DNA of 64,000 bases from Candidatus Magasanikbacteria bacterium RIFOXYD1_FULL_40_23 (GCA_001783215.1 MFRA01000001.1:157449-221448); one strand, 5' to 3'; shown: positions 30,422-50,303, counted from the first letter of the stretch. Numbers and translations are program-made. The notes: generated by a model not told the origin, from the letters alone.

Positions 30422-31855
30422 TTGAATTTTAGCATAAAATCATGCTATACTCAAACTATTATGACCAACCACCTAAATAAATTTTCTTTTAGCGCCTTGA
30501 TGGTGATTTTTTTGTCATTTTTTATAATAATCAACCCAAACATTGGCTTCGATATCCTGGCTTTTTTGCTAATTCTATTTATAATTTTACAAAAACTATT
30601 TGGCGAATATTTTATTCTAATCCTACTGGCCATGCGCCCCACACTTGATTATTGGCGCGATTTTAATCTTTTTTCCGTTGGCTTAATTGATTTCAACATC
30701 AATGCTAGCTTATCAGTATTTTTGCTTGGCTGGTCTATCATTTTCTTTATAAAAAACTACGAATATTTTAGACGTGTCCCTCTCAAAATTTCGTGGCTAC
30801 TTTTTATTCTCTGGTGCACCATCTCGCTTACTTATACCTATCACGCATCCTCCACTATTATAGAAACCATGAAGTTAGCCAACCTGTTTGCCTTGTTTGG
30901 TATTACCTATATATTGGCAGAAAAAGATCGGCTTGGATTTAAAGCTAAATTTTTAAAGGCTGGGGTTGCCGCCGCAATAGCGCCCTTACTTCTTGGACTC
31001 TACCAATTCATATCAAAAACTGGCATGGATATAGATGAAGTTTCCAATAGAATTTACGGAACTTTGGCTCATCCAAATGTGCTCGCTACTTTTGCTCTTT
31101 TGCTTCTTATGGTTCTGGCCAACGAAATTATCGCCAAACAAAAAAATAAAGGCTCTTTGCTTAACCTAAAAACCGACACATTACCAAAACTGCTAGGATT
31201 ATTTCTACTGATAATTATTGCGCTTACATACACTCGTATAGCTTGGATTGGCGCAGCTATTTTATTTATCATTATAGGTATAATTTATTACAAAAAAACA
31301 CTTATCTACTCAATAGCTGGACTGATTTTATTTTTTATTCTCTTCTACCCTATCAATAATTTTTTAATTAGTTCCTACAATATAAATCTGCAGGCTTCTG
31401 GTTTGATTTCTAGACTAACAACCCGCAACCAAGACTCCGACTCCGTACGCTGGCGCACCAACCTAGTTACAAAAGTTTTGCCTTTATTTAAGAAAGAATA
31501 TATTAAAGGATACGGTTACGGCACTTTTGCCCGCGTTTGGGATGACAACAAAGACCTGACTAATCTTTGGGACAATACTTCCGAAGCTCACAATGATTAT
31601 ATAAAAGTTGCTTTTGAGTCTGGAGTGGTTGGATTGTTTTTATTTCTTGTTATTTTTGCCACTCTCCTTTATAGACAAATTACTTTTGCTATAAAAAACA
31701 ACTGGAAAAACATCGTCTTTATTGCCAGTATTTTTGTTTATCTAATCTTAAGCTTCTCGGACAATATGCTTCATCACACACCTACAATTTGGTGGTTCTG
31801 GGCAGTTTGGGGTTGGTGGGCAAACGAGTATCGGATTGAAAAAAATAAAGAATAA
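30422..31855 (+). CDS. O-antigen ligase/polymerase family membrane protein (Wzy_C-like)
   Basis: More than 10 TM helices, plus the ...YTRIAWIGAAILFII... block typical of O-antigen ligases. Confidence 0.6.
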   Translation: MNFSIKSCYTQTIMTNHLNKFSFSALMVIFLSFFIIINPNIGFDILAFLLILFIILQKLFGEYFILILLAMRPTLDYWRDFNLFSVGLIDFNINASLSVFLLGWSIIFFIKNYEYFRRVPLKISWLLFILWCTISLTYTYHASSTIIETMKLANLFALFGITYILAEKDRLGFKAKFLKAGVAAAIAPLLLGLYQFISKTGMDIDEVSNRIYGTLAHPNVLATFALLLLMVLANEIIAKQKNKGSLLNLKTDTLPKLLGLFLLIIIALTYTRIAWIGAAILFIIIGIIYYKKTLIYSIAGLILFFILFYPINNFLISSYNINLQASGLISRLTTRNQDSDSVRWRTNLVTKVLPLFKKEYIKGYGYGTFARVWDDNKDLTNLWDNTSEAHNDYIKVAFESGVVGLFLFLVIFATLLYRQITFAIKNNWKNIVFIASIFVYLILSFSDNMLHHTPTIWWFWAVWGWWANEYRIEKNKE

Positions 31856-32043
31856 AGATTAAATCATCACTCATTTTATCCGCCTCTCTGCCCGCCGCAC
31901 ACCCATTCGGCTCTTTAGCAGAAAATTCGGCGGATTTTCAACTGACACAAAATTATTTCTCTCGGACTTATAATTTTGGTCGTTGAAAACAAAAAACCAC
32001 CCGGAGAGAGTTACCTAAATAAGTACTAAGGTATTTACTCATT

Positions 32044-32118
32044 CGCTCGAAAAAGTAAATAAATTTACTCTTTCTCACTCATTTCGCAAATAAAAAATTA
32101 TTTATTCGGGTAATCGGG
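32044..32118 (+). repeat. orphan copy of the ACTCATTYCG leader-element family
   Basis: actaaggtattTACTCATTCGCTCGaaaaagtaaataaatttactctttctCACTCATTTCGcaaataaaaaa. It matches the elements abutting the start codons at 44045 and 53731. Confidence 0.4.
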
Positions 32119-32235
32119 TGGATGTTTTGCGAGGCAGATAAATCTGCCCATTTTTTTTCACTAATTTTTTAGTGAAGACAAACGGACAGACAATGCCAGA
32201 AAGAATTCGTTAGAACTCTTAAATTTTTTTTACCA

Positions 32236-32345
32236 TTTTCTACTCGCCTTCGTCTTTTACTTCGGCGTAGCGAAGAGTGATACAAAAGATTTAAGAGAGG
32301 AAGAGTGCTGTTGGTATTTATCCAACAAAGCTTTTTCTTCCTACC
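32236..32345 (-). terminator. island 3' module A (duplicate of 37002..37110): two-hairpin terminator-like element
   Basis: About 75% identical to module B over about 110 nt. Contains the hairpins CTTCGgcgtagCGAAG and GAGGAAGagtgctgttggtatttatccaacaaagctttttCTTCCT. Confidence 0.5.
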
Positions 32346-32374
32346 TCAGCGTTTGCCAAGGATTTGGGGTGGTG

Positions 32375-33166
32375 TTAGGGCGGGGGCGGAATCACCTCAA
32401 TGTAGATGGATGCTTGATGGGTGGTGTTACCCATTCCATCGAAGCAGGTGAAGGTGTGCATGGCACTAGAGAGCGGCGCGAACTGCGGTCTGGAACCCGC
32501 CACTTCGTACGCCCCGCTTGAGAGCCCGCCTTGAACCGACGGTTGGCTCATGCCACCACAGCTAGTGGAGACGGTGTTGTCACCATCCCAGACGAGCGGC
32601 ACTTGCTGCCCTCTGGGGATTGAGTAATTACCGTCGGAGACAACTGTCGCATTGGTTACCGACATGCGCATCGCTCGGACTGCCACCGACTTCGGCTCTG
32701 ACACTGCTCCGGACTGGTCGAAACAAATCAGGGTATAGGTAGTCGTCCTGAAGAGCGGAACAACGTCCACCAAACCATTCGCAGCTTGAGAGCCGGAAAA
32801 GTCTGTGGCGCCGTTGTTCGCGGTAGCAGCGCAAACAACAACGGAGGCGTTGGTCGTCCAGGTCAACGAGACGGTTTCGCCTACGCGAACTTTGTCGTCA
32901 CTGACCGTGAACTCGACAATGTTCGGCGGTTCTGCCGCAGCGTCGATGATAGTCATACCACCATCGGTGCCAGCGTCATCATCCATAGGCATTGCATCCA
33001 TCTCAGCATCATCGTCAGCAGCTTCGCCACTCGGGTCGAATGCACAGGCAACGATAATGAGTGCTGACGCGACAATACCAGAAATAAACACTGCAGTGCG
33101 ATGCATGACATGCTCCCCCGACCAAAAAGGCCGTAAAATGGTTTTAACTACGTGGCAACTTGCCAC
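32375..33166 (-). CDS. lipoprotein with Ig-like domain (same domain family as 33415..35664); probable true start at 33106
   Basis: GGGGGAG RBS before the ATG at 33106 (MHRTAVFISGIVASALIIVAC, lipobox IVAC). The domain block is ...VSLTWTTNASVVVC...TYTLIC.... High GC. Confidence 0.6.
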   Translation of the reverse strand: MASCHVVKTILRPFWSGEHVMHRTAVFISGIVASALIIVACAFDPSGEAADDDAEMDAMPMDDDAGTDGGMTIIDAAAEPPNIVEFTVSDDKVRVGETVSLTWTTNASVVVCAATANNGATDFSGSQAANGLVDVVPLFRTTTYTLICFDQSGAVSEPKSVAVRAMRMSVTNATVVSDGNYSIPRGQQVPLVWDGDNTVSTSCGGMSQPSVQGGLSSGAYEVAGSRPQFAPLSSAMHTFTCFDGMGNTTHQASIYIEVIPPPP

Positions 33167-33287
33167 CCTAAATTTAACAAAGAATTTCTCTATTAAATTT
33201 TAGGTGGCAAATATATTTTTCAAAGAAATTTTTTTATAATTCGATCTGTATCATCTTCCTAAAAATTATTTAAGAAGATAATTAGAT

Positions 33288-33317
33288 CGTGTGAGCTTGT
33301 TGGTACAAGCTCACACG
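33288..33317 (-). terminator. hairpin H1 downstream of island gene 2 (covaries with H2)
   Basis: CGTGTGAGCTTGttggtaCAAGCTCACACG, preceded by the shared motif tcttcctaaaaattatttaagaagata. Confidence 0.45.
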
Positions 33318-33414
33318 TGGCTGACTGTCGCTTGTCCGATTTGCTTGCGCATTTCAGGCTTGCGAACTTCCGACTGTTGTCATGAGTGTCGGAGAACTCT
33401 CCTGATTCCTGCCG

Positions 33415-35664
33415 CTACAGGTTCGTGTTGGGCGGACCCGTCAACACCGTGACCGGCGTTGCGCACTGCAGATCCCAGGTGATCCCACTCGGCGGATTCG
33501 CATCCGTCGCGTGGCCTGGCAGCAGCGAACACCCAGTGGTGTATCGACGCGCACTGTCCTGAACTGCCCCTGGCGTCCAGATGCTCGATCCGCCCACAGG
33601 CATGACCGTGAGGAACGACGCGTAGTGGCAGGTGATGGCACAGACGCCATCGGGACCTGAGACCTTGTTGCCGACGAGGGTCAGAACCTGCGGAACTCCC
33701 GTTGCCGACCAGCCCTTGCAAACATCTATGCTTGGCAGATCGGAGTTCTTGTAGAACGCCTCCATTCCGTGACACATCGTGTTGGCGGGCGGAGCGGTCA
33801 CGCTGATGTTGACGAACTTGGTGATGGTGCCACCAGCGACACGGGTGCAGGTAAGCGTGTAGGTGTGCGTCGCGATCATCGTGGGGTTCACGATGATGTT
33901 GCCGTCCACCGGACGATCACCAGTCCAGGCGTTGCTTGCGGTACAAGCGTCGGCGTGGGTGCTATCCCACTCGAGCTTGTAACCACCACCCAATTGCACG
34001 GCCACAGGCGTGGCAGTGAGAGTCAGCGCCAGATCGGGCAGTTGCGGAGCCGTTACGGTCACGTCGGCCGTCGCGTTCACGCTACCACCAGGGCCGGTGC
34101 AGGAAAGCTGGTACTTGGCATCGCTGGTGGGGCTAACCACCAAGGTGCCATTTACCGGCTTCGATCCACTCCAGCTACCCGTGGCCGTACAACTCGTCGC
34201 GTTGGCCGTGCTCCAGCTCAGCGTGCTGCTCTGCCCCATGGTGATGGTGGCAGGCGTTGCGCTGAACGAGAGCGTTGGAAGCGGATGTTGAACCACGGTC
34301 ACAGTCGCCGTGCGAGTGATCTGCTGTCCACCTGGACCGTTGCAGGTCGCGGTGTAGGTCTTCGTTGCGTTCGGGCTGACCGTCATCGTTCCGCTGGTCG
34401 GCTTTGACACCGACTCGATCGTACAGCTAGTCGTGTTCGTACTCGCCCAGCTCAGGCAGCTGCTATCACCGGCGTCGATCGTCGATGGGGAAGCAGAGAA
34501 ATTGAGCGTGAGCAAGGGGTTGACGGTCACAAGCGCGCCGCGAGTGATCGACCCTCCAGGACCTTCGCAGGTCAAGGAGTAGGTCGTCGTCGAGGTCGGC
34601 ATGAGATTCGTCCACGAACCGCTCAAGGGTTGTGTCACCCAGTTGCCGCTGCTGTTGAGGCTACGGCAACTCGTCGCGTTCGCGCTCGTCCAGGTCACGG
34701 TCGTCGTCCCGCCCACATTGATAGTGGCTGGGCTGGCCGTGACGGTCAGAGTCGGAAGCGGCGGAGGCGGTGCGGCGTTGACGACCACAGTAACCGAATC
34801 GGTGACCACATCGTATGAACTGTTGTAGCAGGTCAAGGAGTAGGTCGTCGTCGTGGTCGGCATGAGTCCCGGCCACGATCCATCGATCGGCTGGGGTACC
34901 CAGTAGCCGCTAGCGTTCAGGCTCAAACAGTTCGTAGCGTTCTCGCTGTTCCAGCTCACTGTGGTGCTCTGCCCCACAGTGATGCTGGTCGACGTCGCGG
35001 TGACGTCGAGGGTCGGCAGTGGCGGTTGGATCACGGTCACGGTGACCGATCCATTGTAGCCATGGCCATCCAGACCAGTGCAAACCACCGTGTAGGCGGT
35101 CGTCTGGATCGGAGAGACCACGAAGGTGCCGTTGGGCATCTGCGACCACGTCTCGCTGTTGGTACAGCTCGACATGTTCGTGCTCGTCCAAACCACTGTG
35201 GCGCTCTGCCCCCTGCTGATTGTCATCGGAGTCGCCGTGACTTCGAGAGTCGGATCCGGCGGCGGAGGCGGCTGGATCACCGTCACATCGACGTGATCCA
35301 TGATGCCGACGCCGTTAAGACCGGTACACACCACCGTGTAGGTGGTGTCCACGGTCGGCGAGACCGTGTAGGTACCGTTGACCGGCTGGGACATGCCCAT
35401 GCTGGTGCAGTTGGCCGTGTTGGTAGACAGCCAGTTGATCGTTGCGCTCCCACCGAGGTTGATCTCCATCGGCGTGGCAGTCACGACCAAGGTCGGAGCA
35501 CCGGGCGGTGCATCCGGCGGCGGTGCGTCGGGCGGGGGCGTCGAAGCATCCTCTCCCATCGCATCCACCTCCGGCACGCTGCCGTCGGCTCCCAGGCCTT
35601 GTCCATCCACGACACATGCGGTGACCGAAGCCACCAGGAACAGCAAACTGATTGCCTTACGCAT
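33415..35664 (-). CDS. lipoprotein with about 7 tandem Ig-like domains (about 85 aa each, conserved Cys pair)
   Basis: GGAAGGAG RBS and lipobox VTAC. Repeats follow the pattern PTLxVTATPxxIxxGQSxTVxWxSxNATSC....TYTLTC. High GC. Confidence 0.65.
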   Translation of the reverse strand: MRKAISLLFLVASVTACVVDGQGLGADGSVPEVDAMGEDASTPPPDAPPPDAPPGAPTLVVTATPMEINLGGSATINWLSTNTANCTSMGMSQPVNGTYTVSPTVDTTYTVVCTGLNGVGIMDHVDVTVIQPPPPPDPTLEVTATPMTISRGQSATVVWTSTNMSSCTNSETWSQMPNGTFVVSPIQTTAYTVVCTGLDGHGYNGSVTVTVIQPPLPTLDVTATSTSITVGQSTTVSWNSENATNCLSLNASGYWVPQPIDGSWPGLMPTTTTTYSLTCYNSSYDVVTDSVTVVVNAAPPPPLPTLTVTASPATINVGGTTTVTWTSANATSCRSLNSSGNWVTQPLSGSWTNLMPTSTTTYSLTCEGPGGSITRGALVTVNPLLTLNFSASPSTIDAGDSSCLSWASTNTTSCTIESVSKPTSGTMTVSPNATKTYTATCNGPGGQQITRTATVTVVQHPLPTLSFSATPATITMGQSSTLSWSTANATSCTATGSWSGSKPVNGTLVVSPTSDAKYQLSCTGPGGSVNATADVTVTAPQLPDLALTLTATPVAVQLGGGYKLEWDSTHADACTASNAWTGDRPVDGNIIVNPTMIATHTYTLTCTRVAGGTITKFVNISVTAPPANTMCHGMEAFYKNSDLPSIDVCKGWSATGVPQVLTLVGNKVSGPDGVCAITCHYASFLTVMPVGGSSIWTPGAVQDSARRYTTGCSLLPGHATDANPPSGITWDLQCATPVTVLTGPPNTNL

Positions 35665-35687
35665 GAGAATCTCCTTCCGTAACGGTT

Positions 35688-35796
35688 GAGTGAGGCCGAA
35701 ATGGCCACTTGATGGCCACCATGGCCGAGAAACTACTCGGAGCTTACTACTTGTTGCCTCCGAATTAAATAAATATATTTTTTATATTTACTAAAT
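35688..35796 (-). promoter_or_regulatory. island 5' leader module L1 (near-identical to L2 at 36846..36963)
   Basis: About 110 nt and about 92% identical to L2. Contains two TGGCCAT direct repeats about one helical turn apart, a CTCGGAG/CTCCGA hairpin and an AT-rich promoter-like tract. Runs into the GGAAGGAG RBS and ATG of gene 2. Confidence 0.6.
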
Positions 35797-35903
35797 TCGA
35801 AGGCAACTTTTTGATTTTAATTTACTTTGGTTTTTTGAAAAGAACGCTTTTGTTTTTTAAGCTTCTCATCCTCCTAAATTTAATTAAGAAGATAAGATAC
35901 TAT

Positions 35904-35940
35904 CGCGACGTGTTCTCTGTATGAGAGAGAACACGTCGCG
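35904..35940 (-). terminator. hairpin H2 downstream of island gene 3 (covaries with H1)
   Basis: CGCGACGTGTTCTCTgtatgagAGAGAACACGTCGCG. It sits in the same position and after the same aagaagata motif as H1 but has a different stem sequence. Confidence 0.45.
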
Positions 35941-35987
35941 AACGCCTGCCTACACTTCCGATCGCTCGGTTGCGTAGATTGCGCTTG

Positions 35988-36812
35988 TCAGAACCAGCCG
36001 GTCCTGATGCCCAAACGGACACCCAGACCGAATCCGGTCCACCTGCCGACGTACATCGGCTCGGTGCTTACGGCTCCGACCACATCGGCGAACATGCCGA
36101 AGTGTTCCCAGTTGCCGGCCAACCGCAAGCCTGCATCCACGGCACGGAGCTGAACCAGCTCCTCTCCGGGATCGTCGACGTTGGAACAGAAGCTGAGGTT
36201 GACGGTGGGGCCGAGACCGAAGTGATCGCTGCGCTTGTTCAAGAGCGCCGCACCGGCCGTGGCCGCCACCTCGCTCTTGCCACAACCACCAACGCCAACG
36301 TTGGCGCTCCACTCCCAGGAACGGGTGTTGAGCGTCCCGACGAAGCCGGCGGTGAGCATCTCTTCGACGCTCTCGTCGTACCCGTCGCGATCATCGCGAG
36401 GTTGGAGCAGGACGAACCCACTGCCGAACAGGCCACCGCCAAAGCGGTACCTGCTCGTCTCCACCACCGTCACCGGGAACGGATCGAGCGTGACCGCCGG
36501 CGAAACCGCCGGTGCCTCCTCGTCCTTGCCGTTGTAGGTGTGGTTGATCACCTCGACGCACGCCGTGTCGATGTTCTTGACCGTGTGGATGACACCGGTG
36601 ACGGCGTCGACTTGGATCTCGGTGCGCGGCTTGCCCTCGGCACAGTCATCGTCGACCGGGACGACGCTGGTCTCCACCACCACATCGGCGGGAGGATCTT
36701 CGTTGCTCTGGGCTGCGACTTCCTGCGCCATCATGCCGATGAGGCAGATGCTGGCAAGGGTCAACAGACCATTCTTCTTCCACTGCATGTGCGAAACCTT
36801 CTTGACGAACAT
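35988..36812 (-). CDS. secreted protein with beta-barrel OMP-like C-terminus (ends ...GIRTGWF)
   Basis: GAAGGAG RBS before the ATG at 36812 (MFVKKVSHMQWKKNGLLTLASICLIGMMAQEVAAQ signal peptide). C-terminal alternating hydrophobics ending in Phe. High GC. The track began it at 36833. Confidence 0.55.
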   Translation of the reverse strand: MFVKKVSHMQWKKNGLLTLASICLIGMMAQEVAAQSNEDPPADVVVETSVVPVDDDCAEGKPRTEIQVDAVTGVIHTVKNIDTACVEVINHTYNGKDEEAPAVSPAVTLDPFPVTVVETSRYRFGGGLFGSGFVLLQPRDDRDGYDESVEEMLTAGFVGTLNTRSWEWSANVGVGGCGKSEVAATAGAALLNKRSDHFGLGPTVNLSFCSNVDDPGEELVQLRAVDAGLRLAGNWEHFGMFADVVGAVSTEPMYVGRWTGFGLGVRLGIRTGWF

Positions 36813-36845
36813 GGCGAGTTCTCCTTCTTCCAAAAACTGGTTGCG

Positions 36846-36963
36846 TGAGGCCGAAGTGGCCAGTAACGATGGCCACCATGGCCGAGAAACTTCTCGGAGC
36901 TTACTACTTGTTGCCTCCGAATTAAATAAATATATTTTTTATACTTACTAAATTCGAAGGCAA
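36846..36963 (-). promoter_or_regulatory. island 5' leader module L2 (duplicate of L1)
   Basis: See L1. Differs mainly by a 2-nt indel in the spacer between the TGGCCA hexamers. Confidence 0.6.
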
Positions 36964-37001
36964 TGTTTTTTGTTTTGTAAAGAACTTTTCCAATTTTTTC
37001 T

Positions 37002-37110
37002 TTTCACCACTCGCCTTTGCTTTTTGCTTCGGCGTAGCGAAGTGATGAGCAGAAAATTTGGGAGGAAGGGAGTGGTTGGTATTTCTCCAACAAGACTTCC
37101 CTTCCTCTTT
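37002..37110 (-). terminator. island 3' module B (duplicate of module A)
   Basis: ttttcaccactcgcctttgctttttgCTTCGgcgtagCGAAGtg...GAGGAAGGGAGtggttggtatttctccaacaagaCTTCCCTTCCTC, downstream of 37138..38025. Confidence 0.5.
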
Positions 37111-37137
37111 GACGACTGCCTCGAACTACTCGAGGCG

Positions 37138-38025
37138 CTACTTGCGCGTCACCTTGGCCGGCCGCGGGGTCTTCGGCGGCGGACCAGGGTGATTGACGGT
37201 CTTAATCCTGACCGTCACGGGCTTGACCGTTTCTTCTGCGGGCATCCCGGGCAGATCGCTTACCTTGATCCGATCCATCTTCTTGATCTGCTCAACATCG
37301 AGCTTGATGGAGTCGATGTCCTTCCGGACGTCGACCATCTGCTTGTTCAGCTTGCCGATGGCGGTCCACTGACCGCGCTGTCCCTTCTCGAATTTCTCGA
37401 GCTTCTCCACCCGCTCCTCGATCGTGGGCGGATCCACTTCCTCTTCCTGCGCAGCAGCACGCTCCGCACAGGGATCGTCGGCGGGAGCAGCTTCCTCCTC
37501 GGTCTCCTCCTCTTCGGTAGGCGTCACCACAGCCTGAGGCTGAGGCACTTCCTCCACCGCCGCGGGCGCGGGAGCCGGGGCGGCGACCGGCGGCGGAGCG
37601 TTCTCCGTCGGGGCAGCAGCACCGGAACCCTTGCCCACGTTGGTGACCTTGGTGCTGGCGGACTTGGACGAGTCCGAGCCACCGGACTTGAGCAGCATGA
37701 CGACGACGCCGAGAGCGACCAGGATCGCGATGGTGATCGCGAAGACGGTCCACGACTTCTTGTCGTCGGGCGGCGACGGGTCCGGCTGCTGGTACTGCAT
37801 GGTCTGCGGCGGCAGATTGATCTGCGCCGTGGGCGCCGCCGACTGCTGATACTGCGGCGGGAGCGTCGGGGGCGGGAGCGTCGGCTGGGGCGGGCTGCTG
37901 GGCAGCGGACGCTGCGGGGCCGGCGGCATGCCGGGGAGCGGGCGCTGCGGACTGATGGTCCCAGCAACAGGGGCTTGTGACCGAACAGTGGGCGAACCAT
38001 ACGGGGGCGTGGTCTTCTGCGGCAT
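37138..38025 (-). CDS. Pro-rich, single-pass membrane-anchored coiled-coil protein
   Basis: AAGGAG RBS. N-terminal PxxP-rich region, TM helix WTVFAITIAILVALGVVVMLL, Ala/Pro/Glu-rich linker, then C-terminal coiled-coil (EERVEKLEKFEK...). Two alternative high-GC frames were rejected. Confidence 0.6.
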   Translation of the reverse strand: MPQKTTPPYGSPTVRSQAPVAGTISPQRPLPGMPPAPQRPLPSSPPQPTLPPPTLPPQYQQSAAPTAQINLPPQTMQYQQPDPSPPDDKKSWTVFAITIAILVALGVVVMLLKSGGSDSSKSASTKVTNVGKGSGAAAPTENAPPPVAAPAPAPAAVEEVPQPQAVVTPTEEEETEEEAAPADDPCAERAAAQEEEVDPPTIEERVEKLEKFEKGQRGQWTAIGKLNKQMVDVRKDIDSIKLDVEQIKKMDRIKVSDLPGMPAEETVKPVTVRIKTVNHPGPPPKTPRPAKVTRK

Positions 38026-38191
38026 GGCGGTCTCCTTCTGTGTCTACCGAATCGTTGACTCGTGAGTTTCTTTCCCGCCTGATCAAATTGATCTTGCGAG
38101 AATCCACGAGTTGAAATACGTTGCTGCTAACTAATTCAAGGTACTACTTTTTTCTTTTGAACGACCACCTTTTTATCAGTGATAGTTCCAA

Positions 38192-38228
38192 TTAAAAACA
38201 GTAAAACCTCTTCTTTGCGAGAGAGGTT
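38192..38228 (-). terminator. putative intrinsic terminator downstream of the giant gene
   Basis: Minus strand: AACCTCTctcgcaaagaAGAGGTT then tttactgtttttaat. Confidence 0.35.
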
Positions 38229-38450
38229 GCAAGCTTAAATGCCCTTTATTGATCTGTTTAAATGGCTAAAACAACACCTCTCAATATTGCTCTAACCTCT
38301 AAATTTTCAACGATAGGCCACTATACCATAAAACCTAGTTTTTGTCAATAGGATGACAGGGGGAAATTATCTTTTTGGCTAACTACAAACAAAAAGTACC
38401 CCTTTTTAGAGATACTCTTTGTTTAAAATTTATAAAACTAAGTCATTTAG

Positions 38451-41400
38451 CTATTCAATAGGCGCGCCCGGCTCATTTTTTAGCATATCATTTGCCAGAT
38501 TTACTGCCTCTTCATAAGAATATTTTTGTACAATTTTTCCATCATCCATCTTTAATAAAACACCATCTTTAACGACAAAGGTATTATCCAAATCAGAAAT
38601 AAGAAATTCTTTACCTTCTCTGTCTGTAATTCTAGCAATATGACTATCGTTGGCCAGCATTTTAACACCGTCTTTATTAGGATCTAAAAATAATTTAAGC
38701 TCTTCACCTTCAAGATTTTTGTACCAATCCGGATTCTTATCTATATGATTAAACGCATCCAGTGTATCCTTCATTGTTCTGACGCTTTCAACTACTTTTT
38801 CATCTAAATTAGAAACATCGCCGGCAAAAACTTTTTTGGCATACTCTTTAAAGCTTGCCATTGACGGCTCATTTTCTATTTGTTTTTTAAGTATATCTTG
38901 GCCATCACCTACCATAATAAATTCCGTTTTTTGCAGCGCAATATTAGCTTTCATTGATTCAAAATTCTGATACATAACTTTAAAGCTTTCCACACTTTTC
39001 TCTGTCAATTCTGCAGGTTCTCCTGCAATCGCTTCGCTCTTTTCTGCCTGCTGCTTAGCGGACTCTTCTACTGTAGGTGATACTGGTTTTATTTCAGATG
39101 TTGACTTCGCAGTGTTTTCTAAACTAGTTTTAATTTCTACCTGCTTCGCTCCAGGAGCTGCTTGCACCACTTCCCCGCTAGCCTTAAAAGTTTTGATTGT
39201 TTTACCAACTAAAGTTTTTTCTGTCGTAGTTTCTTCACCTACTACCTCTGGTCCTTGAATATCATTTATAATATTGGCATTTGCCCAAAGCTTATCATCA
39301 ACAGACATTCCGTCATTGATACTTGTTCCGTTTAAGTTACCGGCTTTTTCTTTGGCTGCATTTATCACATATGTTCCTACGGGCTCTCCAGCACGTGCTC
39401 TATCAGAAATATTTATTGCTTCTTCTCCCATTTTGGCAAACTTAGCTTTGTCTGCTTCAATTTCTGCAAGTACAGCGCGATCACCCTCTGGCAACTCGAC
39501 AGCAGGAGCGTTTTTAAAATCACCTTCGTATGGAGCCTCTTCAATTGTTGTAGGAGAAGTTGTAATTTTAACCATTACCGTTTCTTTCAAAACCACTCTG
39601 CCCTGACCGCTCAAAATAGGTTCACCTTTTTCATCTAAACCAAAATATTTAAGCTCACCACCCTGCAAACTTACAGTTCTGCCAGTTCTATCTTCGGTAG
39701 CAGCCCTAAAGAAACCGGCATTGGCCAAATCTGTATTACCCTTGCCTTGCATGGCTCTAAATAAACCATAGACCATCTTTTTATCTGGTTTTTCGTCGTA
39801 TTGCTCTACAAATTTTAAGTAATCTTCGTGCGTGCCTTTGCCAATATATTCGGCCAAATAAGATTTATGCCTACTACTAAAATCTTGACTCTCCAAATAT
39901 TTAGCCGCACCTTCATAATCTTTTGCTTTTACAAGTTCTTCAAAAATTACAGATCTGCGTTCGCCTTCAGCCTCTATAAGAGTGTCTACATCGCCACGAA
40001 CAAGATCGGCATGATGGAATTTAACCCCATCACCCACTTTACTTGCTTCCAAAATCCTACTCAAGGATTCTTCTTTTAAGCTTGGATACTGTTCAACTAA
40101 TTTTTGTAACGGAACCAAGGACTCTTCACTTAATTTATGTTCGGCAGCAAAATCTTGCACAGAAAATAGTGCTGTTTCTGGTGCTATTGCTTCCGGAACT
40201 GGTTCTACACTAACCGTATTCACTGGCGCCACAATATCTTCTTTTGGTAATTCGGCAACTGAACTTGGCAATGCTATTTCTGGTGCAATACTTTCATGTC
40301 CAGTTACCTTGTCCCAAGCGCTCTCAGCTAGATGTCCAATATTTCCTGGGGTCTCCCAAACACGCTTTGCGTTTTGTACAAAACTATCAGATATAATAGA
40401 TGCATCTTTTTCTTTTATCGCTTGGATTAAATTATCTATACTTTCTTTTGGAGAACCTCCATGCAAAACTGTGATATTAAATATACCCACGCCGCGAGCA
40501 ATGGTGCCCAATGCTTTTACAAAATCCATAGCTCTAGCGACACCAGAAGAACCTTCCTTGGCGCCACGGAAAGTAAGCGCACGAGCAGTTTCTTTAGCAG
40601 TACTTGATATTATATCTTTCGTAAATGTTTTTGCATCTTTTTTGTCTTTTAAAGAGCCGGCGATATCTTTTATTTCTTCTTTTTTAACTTGCTTTATTTT
40701 TTCAAAAGCAGAAGCAGCAAGATACACTGCACCTCGCAACAAAGAAATGCCGGTAACTGTAAGTCCTAAATTTAAAGCGTCTTTGGCAATTTTAACTCCC
40801 GAAACTTTTCCATGTATATATGATTCTAAAAGCTCTCTCACTTCACTATCCCTATCATTTCTAGACTTAGTTGTTTCTGTTTTATGTTTTATGGAAATAG
40901 CCCATAATCTTTCTAAAATTTGTTTTTTGGCTTCTTCTTTAATATTTGCAGATCCAATTTTTTCTTTCAAATACTCTATACGTTTTTCAATTCGTTCATT
41001 TTCTGACAAAGCCTCCCCTTTTTTATTTTTTTCGGAAGCCACTAATAAATCTTGGTGGGCTGCAAAAATACTTTCTACGGCTGTTTTGGATTCTTTTGAT
41101 CCCTTTCTCCATTCTGCAAAATCTCCTCTTCCAGTTAAACCACCATATACAATATCTGTAATAATTTTTACACCAAAAAGAGTGGTTACAGTATCATAGC
41201 TTGCTTTTCCAATCGCAAGCCCAAATTCTTTACTAATGACAGCTTTTTTTAAACCGCTCGCTTTTTCTTTTACCCAACCCCACACACCTTTTTTCTCAGG
41301 AGCAGGCGCTGCCGGTACTTGAGGAGATATCTTTTGTATGAATTCCGCATGCAATTTTGGATAGTGTTTTTGCAAATCCTCTGCAAAAGCTTGCATATTA

Positions 41401-49826: not shown

Positions 49827-50220
49827 GGGGGTGCCGGGCTTCGATAGAGGCTGCTGGCTACGCTGGCATACCGAGGAAGCTCTGATCCTCGTAAATCACA
49901 AAGAGCAACATAATAAGTGCAAACTTGTTATCAAAAGCTAAAGTTGCTGTAGCAAATTTATTTGCTGTCAGAGCTTTCGCTCCGGTAATGGCTTAATAGC
50001 CTGTTACCCATCGCGCCGATAATACTCAGTAATCGAACCGCGGTGTCATTAACTGAGAGTAGCTAATATGGAGCGCCGACTGTATATTAGTGAAGTTACC
50101 CGGCTCGTCAATCCAATTTTCGTCCTCTTTTATCGGGTTGATTAAATAACAAGAGACACTAAGTATGTAGAAGGTTTAGTCAAAGTTATCTACACGCGAG
50201 TTCAACTCTCGCCACCTCCA
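49827..50220 (+). ncRNA. ssrA: tmRNA (ssrA), 394 nt
   Basis: Begins GGGGGUGCCGGGCUUCGA 1 nt after the smpB stop. GCAUACCGAGG...CCUCGUAAA and the tag ORF with GCAAAC resume codon and UAAUAG double stop parallel E. coli tmRNA. T-arm GCGAGuucaacuCUCGC. Acceptor GGGGGUG/CACCUCC with discriminator A. Confidence 0.75.
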
Positions 50221-50303
50221 CTGTGTCGCGCCGAAGCTTTAGCGGAGGCGGACAACAAAATTAAACAGTCGCCTTCGCCTTTTAGGGCTTCGGCGTACCA
50301 AGT

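Follow-up and report, generated by a model that had tools for sequence, protein, structure and literature searches.

What holds four GC-rich genes and the similar, AT-rich, structured spacers between them together in an AT-rich genome, and do these spacers act as RNA or as DNA? The question is raised by a locus within 64,000 nucleotides of Candidatus Magasanikbacteria bacterium RIFOXYD1_FULL_40_23 (the window, i.e., the whole stretch analysed; WIN), for which an earlier note had described an island of genes wired with duplicated leaders, 3' modules and hairpins.

The GC-rich operon and its relatives

Four minus-strand genes, ordered G4, G3, G2, G1, make up the operon:

37138..38025, minus strand: G4, 295 aa, Pro-rich N-terminus, one membrane helix, coiled-coil C-terminus; GC3 0.82
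35988..36812, minus strand: G3, 274 aa, signal peptide, beta-rich, C-terminal GWF; GC3 0.82
33415..35664, minus strand: G2, 749-aa lipoprotein, about eight Ig-like repeats, Cys-rich C-terminal domain; GC3 0.77
32375..33106, minus strand: G1, 243-aa lipoprotein, two Ig-like domains; GC3 0.61

In some public records, G3 and G4 have been annotated on the incorrect strand by gene callers. A Pfam search of G1-G4 returned no domain, and the AlphaFold prediction for G3 alone was unusable (pLDDT 37).

The window was compared with the corresponding loci of relatives, named here as L092, L093, L094, L096, L098, L099 and L101. Overall, the same minus-strand operon was found between a wzy-like gene and the gene of a giant protein in at least eight related Magasanikbacteria-like genomes, including all those named; wherever a related locus extended far enough beyond wzy, which was the case in eight, it showed GC-rich minus-strand genes with AT-rich spacers. 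Gene types and the order G4-G3-G2-G1 are conserved across species, with G1-, G2- and G3-type genes as positional homologues and a G4-like architecture at the same position in L096, L098, L099 and L101. The G1 orthologue in L093 is 72-74% identical and the G2 orthologue in L092 is 65% identical, further G2 homologues being present in L098, L101, L099 and L096. G3 is related to L096_p2 (E=1.4e-9), and no homologue of it was found outside the clade.

The operon ORFs of the window are 56-67% GC (GC3 0.61-0.82), compared to 35-38% (GC3 0.27-0.36) in host genes; across the related loci, their GC3 ranges from 0.6 to 0.94 and the spacers are AT-rich. Between the window and L093, G1 has a dS of 1.03; the values of the host genes wzy and GHL15 are 0.95 and 1.02. 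With the same locus in relatives and a dS equal to that of host genes, the "island" of the earlier note cannot be upheld as a recent acquisition. Judged from these sequence comparisons, the four GC-rich genes are a vertically inherited envelope operon common to a Magasanikbacteria-like clade. The spacers of the window are 80-95% identical to those of L092 and L093 at a synonymous p-distance of 0.5-0.6, and hence strongly constrained. Many assemblies break at or inside the operon. The literature searched yielded nothing relevant on a GC-rich operon in Patescibacteria or Magasanikbacteria.

Promoter, leader and spacer modules

The operon begins with a near-consensus promoter and a conserved leader:

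38320..38348, minus strand: sigma-70-type promoter, TTGACA-17-TATAGT with extended TG; 11/12 consensus matches plus the TG
38190..38319, minus strand: leader RNA, conserved in a five-species alignment

The promoter is also conserved in L096, L098, L099 and L101, and in each of the five species it is the one site per operon that reaches 11/12 plus TG. Most internal spacers contain no promoter site of at least 9/12 despite their AT-richness, measured against a scan consensus that may not fit CPR promoters. Within the leader, a hairpin with a GAGAG(AG) loop lies at 38270-38291, and a terminator hairpin, AACCUCUCUC..GAGAGGUU, occupies 38205-38228 and runs into a U tract; a leader model (R2) found exactly one copy per locus (93-112 bits). 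Similar to riboswitch and attenuator leaders, the stretch 38190-38319 carries a conserved hairpin and an intrinsic terminator, with the hairpin loop complementary to the 5' arm of the terminator; unlike them, it matches no Rfam family, and the comparison comprises only five sequences. The GAGAGAG loop could oppose the terminator and so permit regulated read-through.

The 5' parts of the spacers, including the leaders L1 (of G2) and L2 (of G3), contain the following features:

38058..38111, minus strand: hairpin at the P position upstream of G4, a predicted fold with no match to model R1
36973..36985, minus strand: box GUUCUUUACAAAA, within an A-rich single-stranded linker
36904..36969, minus strand: P hairpin of leader L2; model R1, 61.3 bits sense, 17.2 antisense
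36810..36883, minus strand: 5' UTR of G3, with a GC-rich hairpin (36849-36883), ribosome-binding site GGAAGAAGGAG and ATG (36812-36810)
35833..35845, minus strand: degenerate box GUUCUUUUCAAAA
35747..35812, minus strand: P hairpin of leader L1; model R1, 61.1 bits sense, 24.6 antisense
35662..35726, minus strand: 5' UTR of G2, with a GC-rich TGGCCA hairpin (35694-35726), ribosome-binding site GGAAGGAG and ATG
33216..33228, minus strand: degenerate box UUUCUUUGAAAAA
33156..33214, minus strand: P hairpin upstream of G1; model R1, 73.5 bits sense, 42.8 antisense

L1 and L2, previously estimated to be about 92% identical over about 110 nt, were 93.6% identical over 125 nt (35684-35806 versus 36839-36963), while other alignments gave 96% over 102 nt ungapped and 91% over 138 nt. 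As had been stated, both run into a ribosome-binding site, GGAAGGAG-N6-ATG for G2 and GGAAGAAGGAG-N8-ATG for G3, and the similarity among modules is not confined to low-complexity AT tracts.

In an alignment of 11 P hairpins with 21 pairs, 92.2% of the cells were paired, compared to 40-57% with the partners slid, and 12 of the 21 pairs had changed on both sides, a number reached in none of 500 shuffles. The P hairpin of L1 has CGAAUUUAGUAA in common with that of the L099 G3>G2 spacer, and the one upstream of G1 has orthologues with compensatory changes in L092, L093, L094 and L099. Model R1 found P in operon spacers only (174 kb, the window plus related loci) and also recovered three copies absent from its building set. 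P scores higher on the sense strand (55-73 bits) than on the antisense strand (17-52 bits), and G-U pairs are frequent on the former, which indicates that the structure is read in the mRNA. The model found no P hairpin in L096 and only one in L098, and P is thus not indispensable. The box recurs before P hairpins in WIN, L093, L094, L098, L099 and L101. Its distance to P, counted by hand on the locus sequences, varies between 9 and 37 nt, so that it is no fixed -35 element for a start upstream of P; as there is also no -10 at a fixed distance, we rejected it as the -35 of internal promoters for most spacers.

The 3' parts of the spacers and the end of the operon carry modules of two types, T1 and T2:

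37005..37136, minus strand: module B (T1), with a post-stop hairpin at 37118-37136
37062-37107, minus strand: hairpin 1 of B, GAGGAAGGGA..UCCCUUCCUC plus U tract
37005-37047, minus strand: hairpin 2 of B, with a 30-nt insertion in common with A
35862..35941, minus strand: T2 module after G3, H2 (35903-35941, perfect 16-bp stem) and then H2b (35862-35896)
33243..33317, minus strand: T2 module after G2, H1 (33288-33317, 13-bp stem) and then H1b (33243-33288)
32216..32361, minus strand: module A (T1) at the operon end, with a post-stop hairpin at 32344-32361
32298-32342, minus strand: hairpin 1 of A plus U tract
32216-32297, minus strand: hairpin 2 of A, flanked by U and A tracts

We confirmed that A and B, reported as about 75% identical, carry two hairpins each and agree at 75.4% over 118 nt (32212-32328 versus 36981-37093). 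The 30-nt insertion is common to these two only; apart from it, A is 80-95% identical to its counterparts in L092 and L093. Of the 13 consensus pairs of T1, eight are compensatory. The T1 stem GGAAGA..UCUUCC runs into CUCUUAAAUCUUUU and the T1 stem GAGGAAGGGA..UCCCUUCCUC into CCAAAUUUUCU, and hairpin 2 shows the order U tract, stem, A tract, as in the host-type arrangement. A consensus terminator scan called neither stem, nor did it report any other minus-strand terminator within the spacers, and H1 and H2 are followed by poor U tracts.

H1 and H2, described earlier as equivalent hairpins with different stems, are strong hairpins of unrelated sequence, and the aagaagata motif said to accompany them is real (UAUCUUCUU on the coding, minus strand, 3' of H). 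This motif supplies the 5' arm of another hairpin (Hb), which is conserved and had been missed and in which 4 of 11 pairs are compensatory and many are U-G pairs; in L092 and L093, a C-G pair of the H1/H1b module is replaced by U-A, a compensatory change. Selection for structure, which the earlier note had deduced from covariation between H1 and H2, is supported through the cross-species covariation of P, Hb and T1, whereas H1 and H2 cannot be aligned and therefore give no covariation. Across species, the 3' hairpins (H1, H2, T1) are conserved or kept in position, and the spacer folds reach z values of -9 to -11 against shuffled sequence. The suggestion of a common regulatory design is supported, since the same set of modules recurs in all spacers of the orthologous operons of related species; further module copies, for which a search next to other surface-protein genes had been proposed, were not found in the other 58 kb of the window.

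At the gathering score, Rfam recognised only tmRNA and tRNA in the window, and a permissive search of 31800-38500 (up to E=5) gave a best value of 0.032 and mostly microRNA families, all far below gathering. In exact-pattern scans, the A/B core TTCGCTACGCCGAAGNAAAA had no match in viral contigs and 12 in GTDB representative genomes, alike over about 30 nt only and attributable to chance. The L pattern AATTCGGAGGCAACAAGTAG had none in viral contigs, and TTCTCGGCCATGGTGGCCA had 75 in metagenome contigs, all in GC-rich sequence with a likeness of about 20-30 nt around the seed only. Small ORFs starting from an AUG inside Hb (AGGAGGAUGA) were discarded, with a Shine-Dalgarno-to-AUG spacing of 0-1 nt and neither lengths nor sequences conserved, and a candidate third T1 copy at 38120-38270, upstream of G4, was dropped because its likeness is confined to A-rich low-complexity sequence.

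Readings of the spacers

The explanation that we favour, with a probability of about 0.5, is a single regulated polycistronic mRNA; termination would be partial, processing would take place in the spacers, and hairpins would protect the ends. The promoter at 38348-38320 would drive all four genes through a 130-nt leader ending in the terminator, and the AT-rich spacers would serve as RNA punctuation inside this transcript. Each spacer comprises, in order, a 3' module, either T1 (a terminator-like stem with U tract, and a second hairpin flanked by U/A tracts) or T2 (a perfect GC-rich hairpin H of arbitrary sequence and the conserved hairpin Hb); an A-rich single-stranded linker with the box; the AU-rich hairpin P of 21-25 bp; and one or two small GC-rich hairpins directly before a strong Shine-Dalgarno sequence. 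T1 modules may terminate a share of the transcripts, and cuts could be made by an endonuclease in the linker or by RNase III in P, after which the hairpins would shield the new 3' and 5' ends. Each cistron would then have a stability of its own, and selective RNA processing and stabilisation (SRPS) together with internal terminators could set the stoichiometry of the four proteins. The likeness between L1 and L2 and between A and B goes back to whole modules having been copied from one spacer of the operon to another and, as a by-product, the conserved modules could act as homology arms for replacing fast-evolving protein-coding parts. The mechanism has a precedent in clostridial cip-cel and ABC-transporter operons (PMC4423207, PMC10311766, PMC9045158). 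Several observations count against this explanation. B is built like the operon-end terminator A, and an efficient B would leave G3, G2 and G1 in need of a promoter of their own; moreover, a 9/12 promoter-like site upstream of G2 (35841-35814, TTTTCA-16-TAAAAT, in the L1 spacer) would place a transcription start on the first base of P. The poor U tracts behind H1 and H2, the terminator scan with no minus-strand call in the spacers, and the missing or single P hairpin of L096 and L098 also speak against it, and the scanned promoter consensus may not fit CPR promoters.

An alternative explanation, tenable if rather unlikely, takes up the observations on B and on the site upstream of G2 and makes each gene its own transcription unit, with T1 and T2 as full terminators and with linker, box and the start of P as a promoter. 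This promoter would consist of an UP-like A tract and a TTTACA or TTGCC -35, and P would be an operator or the 5'-terminal stem-loop of the primary transcript. The architecture shared by B and A is repeated in the L099 G4>G3 spacer, the box is similar to the sequence around the -35 of the leader promoter (CTTGACAAAA versus TCTTTACAAAA), and P, with TTGCCA or TTGTCA at its bases, itself offers -35-like sequence. However, neither the box nor TTGCC is accompanied by a -10 at constant spacing, most internal spacers stay below 9/12 and the box-to-P distance is variable. Transcripts initiating about 30 nt beyond the box would in most copies begin within P, yet both arms read as sense RNA, and covariation with changing sequence speaks against a protein-bound operator.

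That the modules act primarily at the DNA level, as homology anchors or dedicated recombination sites exchanging surface-protein cassettes between strains, seems quite improbable to us. Mosaic change itself is present: in L092, the gene at the G1 position has had its mature-protein part precisely replaced; the 5' spacer together with the signal-peptide codons is retained at 70-93% identity and the 3' module at 80-97%, and the new C-terminal domain is related to one in L096. Within the operon, whole 5' modules (L1/L2) and the 30-nt A/B insertion have been copied, and the assembly breaks mentioned above would also agree with exchange. The same mosaic pattern, however, would result from ordinary homologous recombination across any conserved flank. 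Conserved gene types and order are at odds with a cassette array, no recombinase or integrase Pfam match occurs among the genes called within 10 kb, the hairpins have no attC core sites, and compensatory changes and strand-specific G-U pairs indicate an RNA function. The recombination anchors proposed in the earlier note are partly supported by the copying and the ORF replacement; given a conserved order, no nearby recombinase and modules with the behaviour of RNA, however, anchoring is probably a by-product and not the function.

It is very improbable that a transcription factor bound to paired TGGCCA hexamers in L1 and L2 co-regulates G2 and G3. The pairs exist as described (35702/35713 and 36857/36870), but their spacing is 11 nt in L1 and 13 nt in L2, and the hexamer occurs 51 times in the window against 16 expected, a threefold excess that reflects a genome-wide bias. 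In each leader, the two hexamers are the arms of one RNA hairpin, and the differences between L1 and L2 lie in the loop or keep the pair (G-U in L1, G-C in L2). Most orthologous leaders inspected lack the pair and have unrelated GC-rich hairpins there, with a similar GGCCA/UGGCC hairpin in L092. The weakest reading, a recent foreign GC-rich island whose spacers are dispersed mobile repeats (MITE- or REP-like) or captured host promoters, can point to the atypical composition of the ORFs and to G3 with its homologues limited to the clade, but is contradicted by the presence of the locus in all eight related species examined, the operon dS equal to host-gene dS, the lack of module copies elsewhere in the window or in the 174 kb including related loci, the chance-only matches in viral, genome and metagenome collections, and a setting with no integrase among the genes called within 10 kb, no flanking direct repeats and no adjacent tRNA gene (the tmRNA and tRNA genes are 12 kb and 19 kb away).

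Known systems and the GC contrast

Classic SRPS cases are the puf, pap and malEFG operons. Similar to the cip-cel and ABC-importer operons of cellulolytic clostridia, the present locus is a multi-gene operon for extracytoplasmic proteins with only one strong promoter, lying upstream, strong stem-loops of differing stability after cistrons and terminator-like elements inside the operon; stable stem-loops are found at the cistron 3' ends (H1, H2 and the T1 hairpins). Unlike in those operons, P, Hb and the box are a reused homologous module set instead of unrelated hairpins, the composition of the ORFs contrasts sharply with the spacers and the rest of the genome, and RNA processing is a step that we infer. 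RNase III processing hairpins between cistrons are known from phage T7 early and late mRNAs and from rRNA operons. P resembles these as an intercistronic hairpin of about 20-25 bp recurring with related sequence in one transcription unit, but it is very AU-rich with a GC clamp and has no sequence similarity to T7 sites.

The vlp and vsp genes of Mollicutes are families of variable surface lipoprotein genes with conserved 5' regions. The operon has in common with them a small AT-rich genome, tandem-repeat lipoproteins, mosaic evolution, and highly conserved 5' non-coding and signal-peptide regions beside divergent mature-protein regions; it differs in its dissimilar gene architectures, fixed order, RNA-type covariation and GC-rich ORFs. 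Neither a homopolymer tract nor an inversion site that could serve phase variation was seen at the operon. Integron arrays with attC sites likewise have imperfect inverted repeats between unrelated ORFs, the repeats being more alike than the ORFs. The P-type hairpins, however, read (G)TTGCC...GGCAA(C) with GTT/AAC outermost and lie 5' of genes with ribosome-binding sites, RYYYAAC/GTTRRRY cores and a nearby integrase are missing, and we rejected an attC reading on the core sites and the gene order conserved across species. Dispersed intergenic repeats (MITE, REP/BIME, Correia-like) were also rejected, with no copy outside the operon in the 64-kb window or, using R1, in 174 kb.

The GC-richness of the operon ORFs within AT-rich genomes is unexplained. 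Un-ameliorated gene transfer cannot account for it, since a GC3 of 0.6-0.94 persists in genomes of 35-40% GC despite synonymous turnover, and this makes the locus a natural test case for GC-biased gene conversion versus selection on mRNA in bacteria. Tentatively, and with considerable doubt, we suggest a locus-specific process that keeps the coding parts GC-rich and the spacers AT-rich and structured. This might be strong GC-biased gene conversion at an envelope-protein recombination hot spot; alternatively, selection might strip AU-rich nuclease and termination signals from the ORFs, so that the mRNA is cut only at designated AU-rich linkers. If so, a bacterial mRNA would be partitioned by composition into protected coding blocks and signal-bearing spacers, and this partition would have persisted in a candidate-phylum lineage for longer than it takes to accumulate one substitution per synonymous site. 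To our knowledge, almost nothing is known of gene expression signals in candidate-phyla-radiation bacteria, for which the locus provides testable objects: a covarying RNA family (P, Hb, T1), a sequence box, a riboswitch-like leader and a near-consensus promoter. All of these are tied to one envelope operon; it adjoins polysaccharide genes and probably shapes the surface of these cells, which are presumed to be episymbionts.

Composition and inheritance of the envelope operon

The window belongs to a MAG of Candidatus Magasanikbacteria recovered from groundwater at Rifle and has roughly 37% GC, compared to 50-64% GC at 32.3-38.1 kb, where four envelope genes are found, listed here in the order in which they lie on the minus strand:

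G4, 37138-38025, minus strand: proline-rich region, one membrane helix, coiled coil
G3, 35988-36812, minus strand: signal peptide; C-terminal GWF
G2, 33415-35664, minus strand: lipoprotein signal peptide, Ig-like repeats
G1, 32375-33106, minus strand: lipoprotein signal peptide, Ig-like repeats

The minus-strand frames of G1-G4 displayed a GC3 of 0.61-0.82, with base composition across codon positions as in genuine GC-rich genes, while the plus-strand ORFs overlapping them are shadow ORFs. Such ORFs have been called as genes in an ENA contig (289- and 336-aa genes opposite G3 and G4, window 35970-36848 (+) and 36970-37980 (+)) and also in the orthologous loci L099 (G2- to G4-position genes) and L101 (two genes); we consider all of these calls shadow ORFs because the called frames have a high GC1, not a high GC3. 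None of G1-G4 had a Pfam match, and no homologue of G3 outside the clade was found among 1.8 billion representative proteins.

Ten loci from related species were retrieved through homologues of the wzy-like gene next to the operon (Wzy 63-85% amino-acid identity). The synteny of PALP, GHL15 and wzy was kept in all ten, and in each of the eight loci whose sequence extended far enough beyond wzy the next genes were minus-strand genes of 55-70% GC with AT-rich spacers between them, the highest operon GC3 among the relatives being 0.94 (L099). The full loci (L096, L098, L099 and L101) have 3-4 operon genes, of the same types and in the same order as in the window, and a homologue of the giant protein gene marks the end of the series. 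Compared to L093, the dS of G1 (1.03) was similar to that of wzy (0.95) and GHL15 (1.02), with a dN about twice as high for G1, so that the operon has diverged along with the genome, by about one substitution at each synonymous site, without losing its GC-richness. The earlier note had treated the region as an island; as a recent import this does not hold, since the same locus is GC-rich in 8/8 relatives and the dS of G1 matches that of host genes. The truly odd feature of the locus is that its ORFs have stayed GC-rich next to AT-rich spacers (310-325 nt, 20-30% GC in their AT-rich core).

Four assemblies gave an identical junction of the region with its flanking genes. Three independent short contigs stop at exactly window 36143, within G3, and the contigs of several related assemblies (L095, L100 and the ends of L092-L094) break inside the operon or just past wzy, a pattern suggestive of heterogeneity among strains or of reduced coverage here. 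One relative carries an additional gene (L096 14544-15107, 187 aa), with a GC content like that of the host (0.43), in the interval separating the operon promoter from the giant protein gene.

Spacer modules and their covariation

We confirmed that the leaders L1 and L2, located 5' of G2 and G3, are similar (93.6% identity over 125 nt; 96% over 102 nt ungapped) and that both lead into ribosome-binding sites, as well as the similarity of the 3' modules A and B after G1 and G4 (75% identity over 118 nt) and the hairpins H1 (13-bp stem) and H2 (perfect 16-bp stem). Spacer folds scored z -9 to -11 against shuffles, and the top two by length of the short-range inverted repeats listed for the 64-kb window were both within operon spacers, while no further copy of any module was found in the window. 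Overall, the earlier finding is real and richer than first described: the modules form a family of covarying RNA elements, new and specific to the clade, that punctuate a conserved envelope operon.

Coding-strand folds of all spacers in all loci revealed one design. A hairpin after the stop codon comes first, followed by a 3' module and an A-rich linker in which the box GUUCUUUACAAAA lies; next come a 21-bp hairpin (P), small GC-rich hairpins (one or two) and finally a Shine-Dalgarno sequence of the GGAGG type. Two types of 3' module occur. T1, to which A and B belong and which also closes the operon in most relatives, has a GGAAGAG..CUCUUCC stem with a U tract, followed by a second hairpin between U and A tracts. 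In T2, a conserved hairpin Hb (UUAUCUUCUUAA / UUAGGAAGAUGA) follows a perfect GC-rich hairpin H, which is unrelated in sequence and recurs at the same position in most T2-type spacers. The "aagaagata" motif described before H1 and H2 is real and, on closer view, is the 5' arm of Hb. Covariation was likewise borne out in part, with compensatory changes across species in P, Hb (4/11 pairs) and T1 (8/13 consensus pairs), while H1 and H2 themselves are unalignable and show no covariation in the strict sense.

In an alignment of 11 copies of P, 92.2% of cells in the 21 pairs were paired compared to 40-57% with slid partners, and both-sided changes occurred in 12 of the pairs, a number matched in 0/500 shuffles. 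Matches of the P covariance model were confined to operon spacers across 174 kb, three of them outside the model-building set. The model scored higher on the sense strand (55-73 bits) than on the antisense strand (17-52 bits) and sense-strand G-U pairs were frequent, so P is read in the mRNA and is no double-stranded DNA operator. Between the window and L092/L093, modules retained 80-95% identity, while the synonymous p-distance was 0.5-0.6. In several copies (window 33150-33175; L092 and L099 spacers) the base of the P 3' arm can also pair with a stretch immediately 3' of it, for example GGUGGCAA-G-UUGCCAC 5' of G1, GUGGC..GCCAC and GCGGU..ACCGC+UUUUU in L099, and UCGGAG..CUCCGA in L1/L2; this could be a switch, or a small 5' hairpin after P cleavage.

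The TGGCCA pair of L1 and L2 had been proposed as a helically phased protein-binding site, an idea that the data do not support. The palindrome is in excess throughout the window (51 copies versus 16 expected from dinucleotide-preserving shuffles; shuffle maximum 29), the pair is spaced unequally (11 nt in L1, 13 nt in L2), and the two copies are the arms of one RNA hairpin, in which L1 and L2 differ in the loop or with the stem pair kept (G-U in L1, G-C in L2). Most other orthologous leaders inspected have an unrelated GC-rich hairpin at this position, L092 having a similar one (GGCCA/UGGCC).

Gene replacement and probable module copying

The P hairpin of L1 has CGAAUUUAGUAA in common with P of the L099 G3>G2 spacer, while P of the L099 G4>G3 spacer differs, so that the whole 5' module, from the box through the start codon, was probably copied between spacers in the lineage of the window. 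Modules A and B have a 30-nt insertion in common, itself a small hairpin inside hairpin 2 and absent from all seven other aligned T1 copies:

32255-32285 (A) and 37012-37040 (B): CGCUACGCCGAAG.AAAA..C.AAGGCGAG

Because A is nearer to its L092/L093 orthologues than to B, the insertion is better explained by a short conversion tract than by copying of the whole module.

The G1-position gene of L092 has kept its 5' spacer (70-93% identity to L093), signal-peptide codons (78%) and 3' module (80-97%), while identity drops to random levels from about L092 5265 to 4808, and L096 has a relative of the new C-terminal domain. The part encoding the mature protein was thus replaced between conserved ends. 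This supports recombination at such anchors, as put forward in the earlier note, as an event, but anchoring is unlikely to be the function of the modules, given the conserved gene order and types and the RNA-type constraint.

Promoter, leader and proposed transcript processing

The operon has one strong sigma-70-type site, conserved in 5/5 full loci and followed by a leader:

38348-38320, minus strand: promoter TTGACA-17-TATAGT, extended TG
38190-38348, minus strand: promoter and leader of about 130 nt (L096 14299-14451, L098 7908-8057, L099 13308-13469, L101 9956-10104)

The leader contains a covarying hairpin, whose loop reads GAGAG(AG), and, at its end, a terminator (CCUCUCUC..GAGAGG and a U tract), to whose 5' arm the loop is complementary. 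Its model found exactly one copy per locus and it had no Rfam match; the leader is a candidate riboswitch or attenuator.

We propose, as the most likely mechanism, a variant of the selective RNA processing and stabilisation known from clostridial operons (PMC4423207, PMC10311766, PMC9045158). The four genes would be on one regulated polycistronic transcript, T1 modules would end a fraction of transcripts, and the transcript would be cut in the AU-rich linker or within P, with 3' ends shielded by H/Hb/T1 hairpins and 5' ends by P-derived and GC-rich hairpins. The main alternative explanation is that each gene is a separate transcription unit, as module B resembles a full terminator and a 9/12 promoter-like site with a predicted start at the base of P is present in the L1 spacer. 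Most internal spacers have no site of at least 9/12 despite their AT-richness, and the box lies at a variable distance from P (9-37 nt, counted on the printed spacer sequences), so it is no fixed -35 element for a start upstream of P.

Between the wzy-like gene and module A, window 31960-32200 shows higher conservation than the genes on either side (about 92% identity at 31986-32041) and has two long conserved hairpins, one of which precedes a U run on the minus strand (CCACCCG...CGGGUGGUUUUUUG), as well as a plus-strand terminator at 32133-32158 and an insertion at about 32036-32095 relative to other species; the stretch could encode a small RNA or form a pair of convergent terminators. A tmRNA gene was also found at window 49827-50223 (tag peptide ANLLSKAKVAVANLFAVRAFAPVMA).
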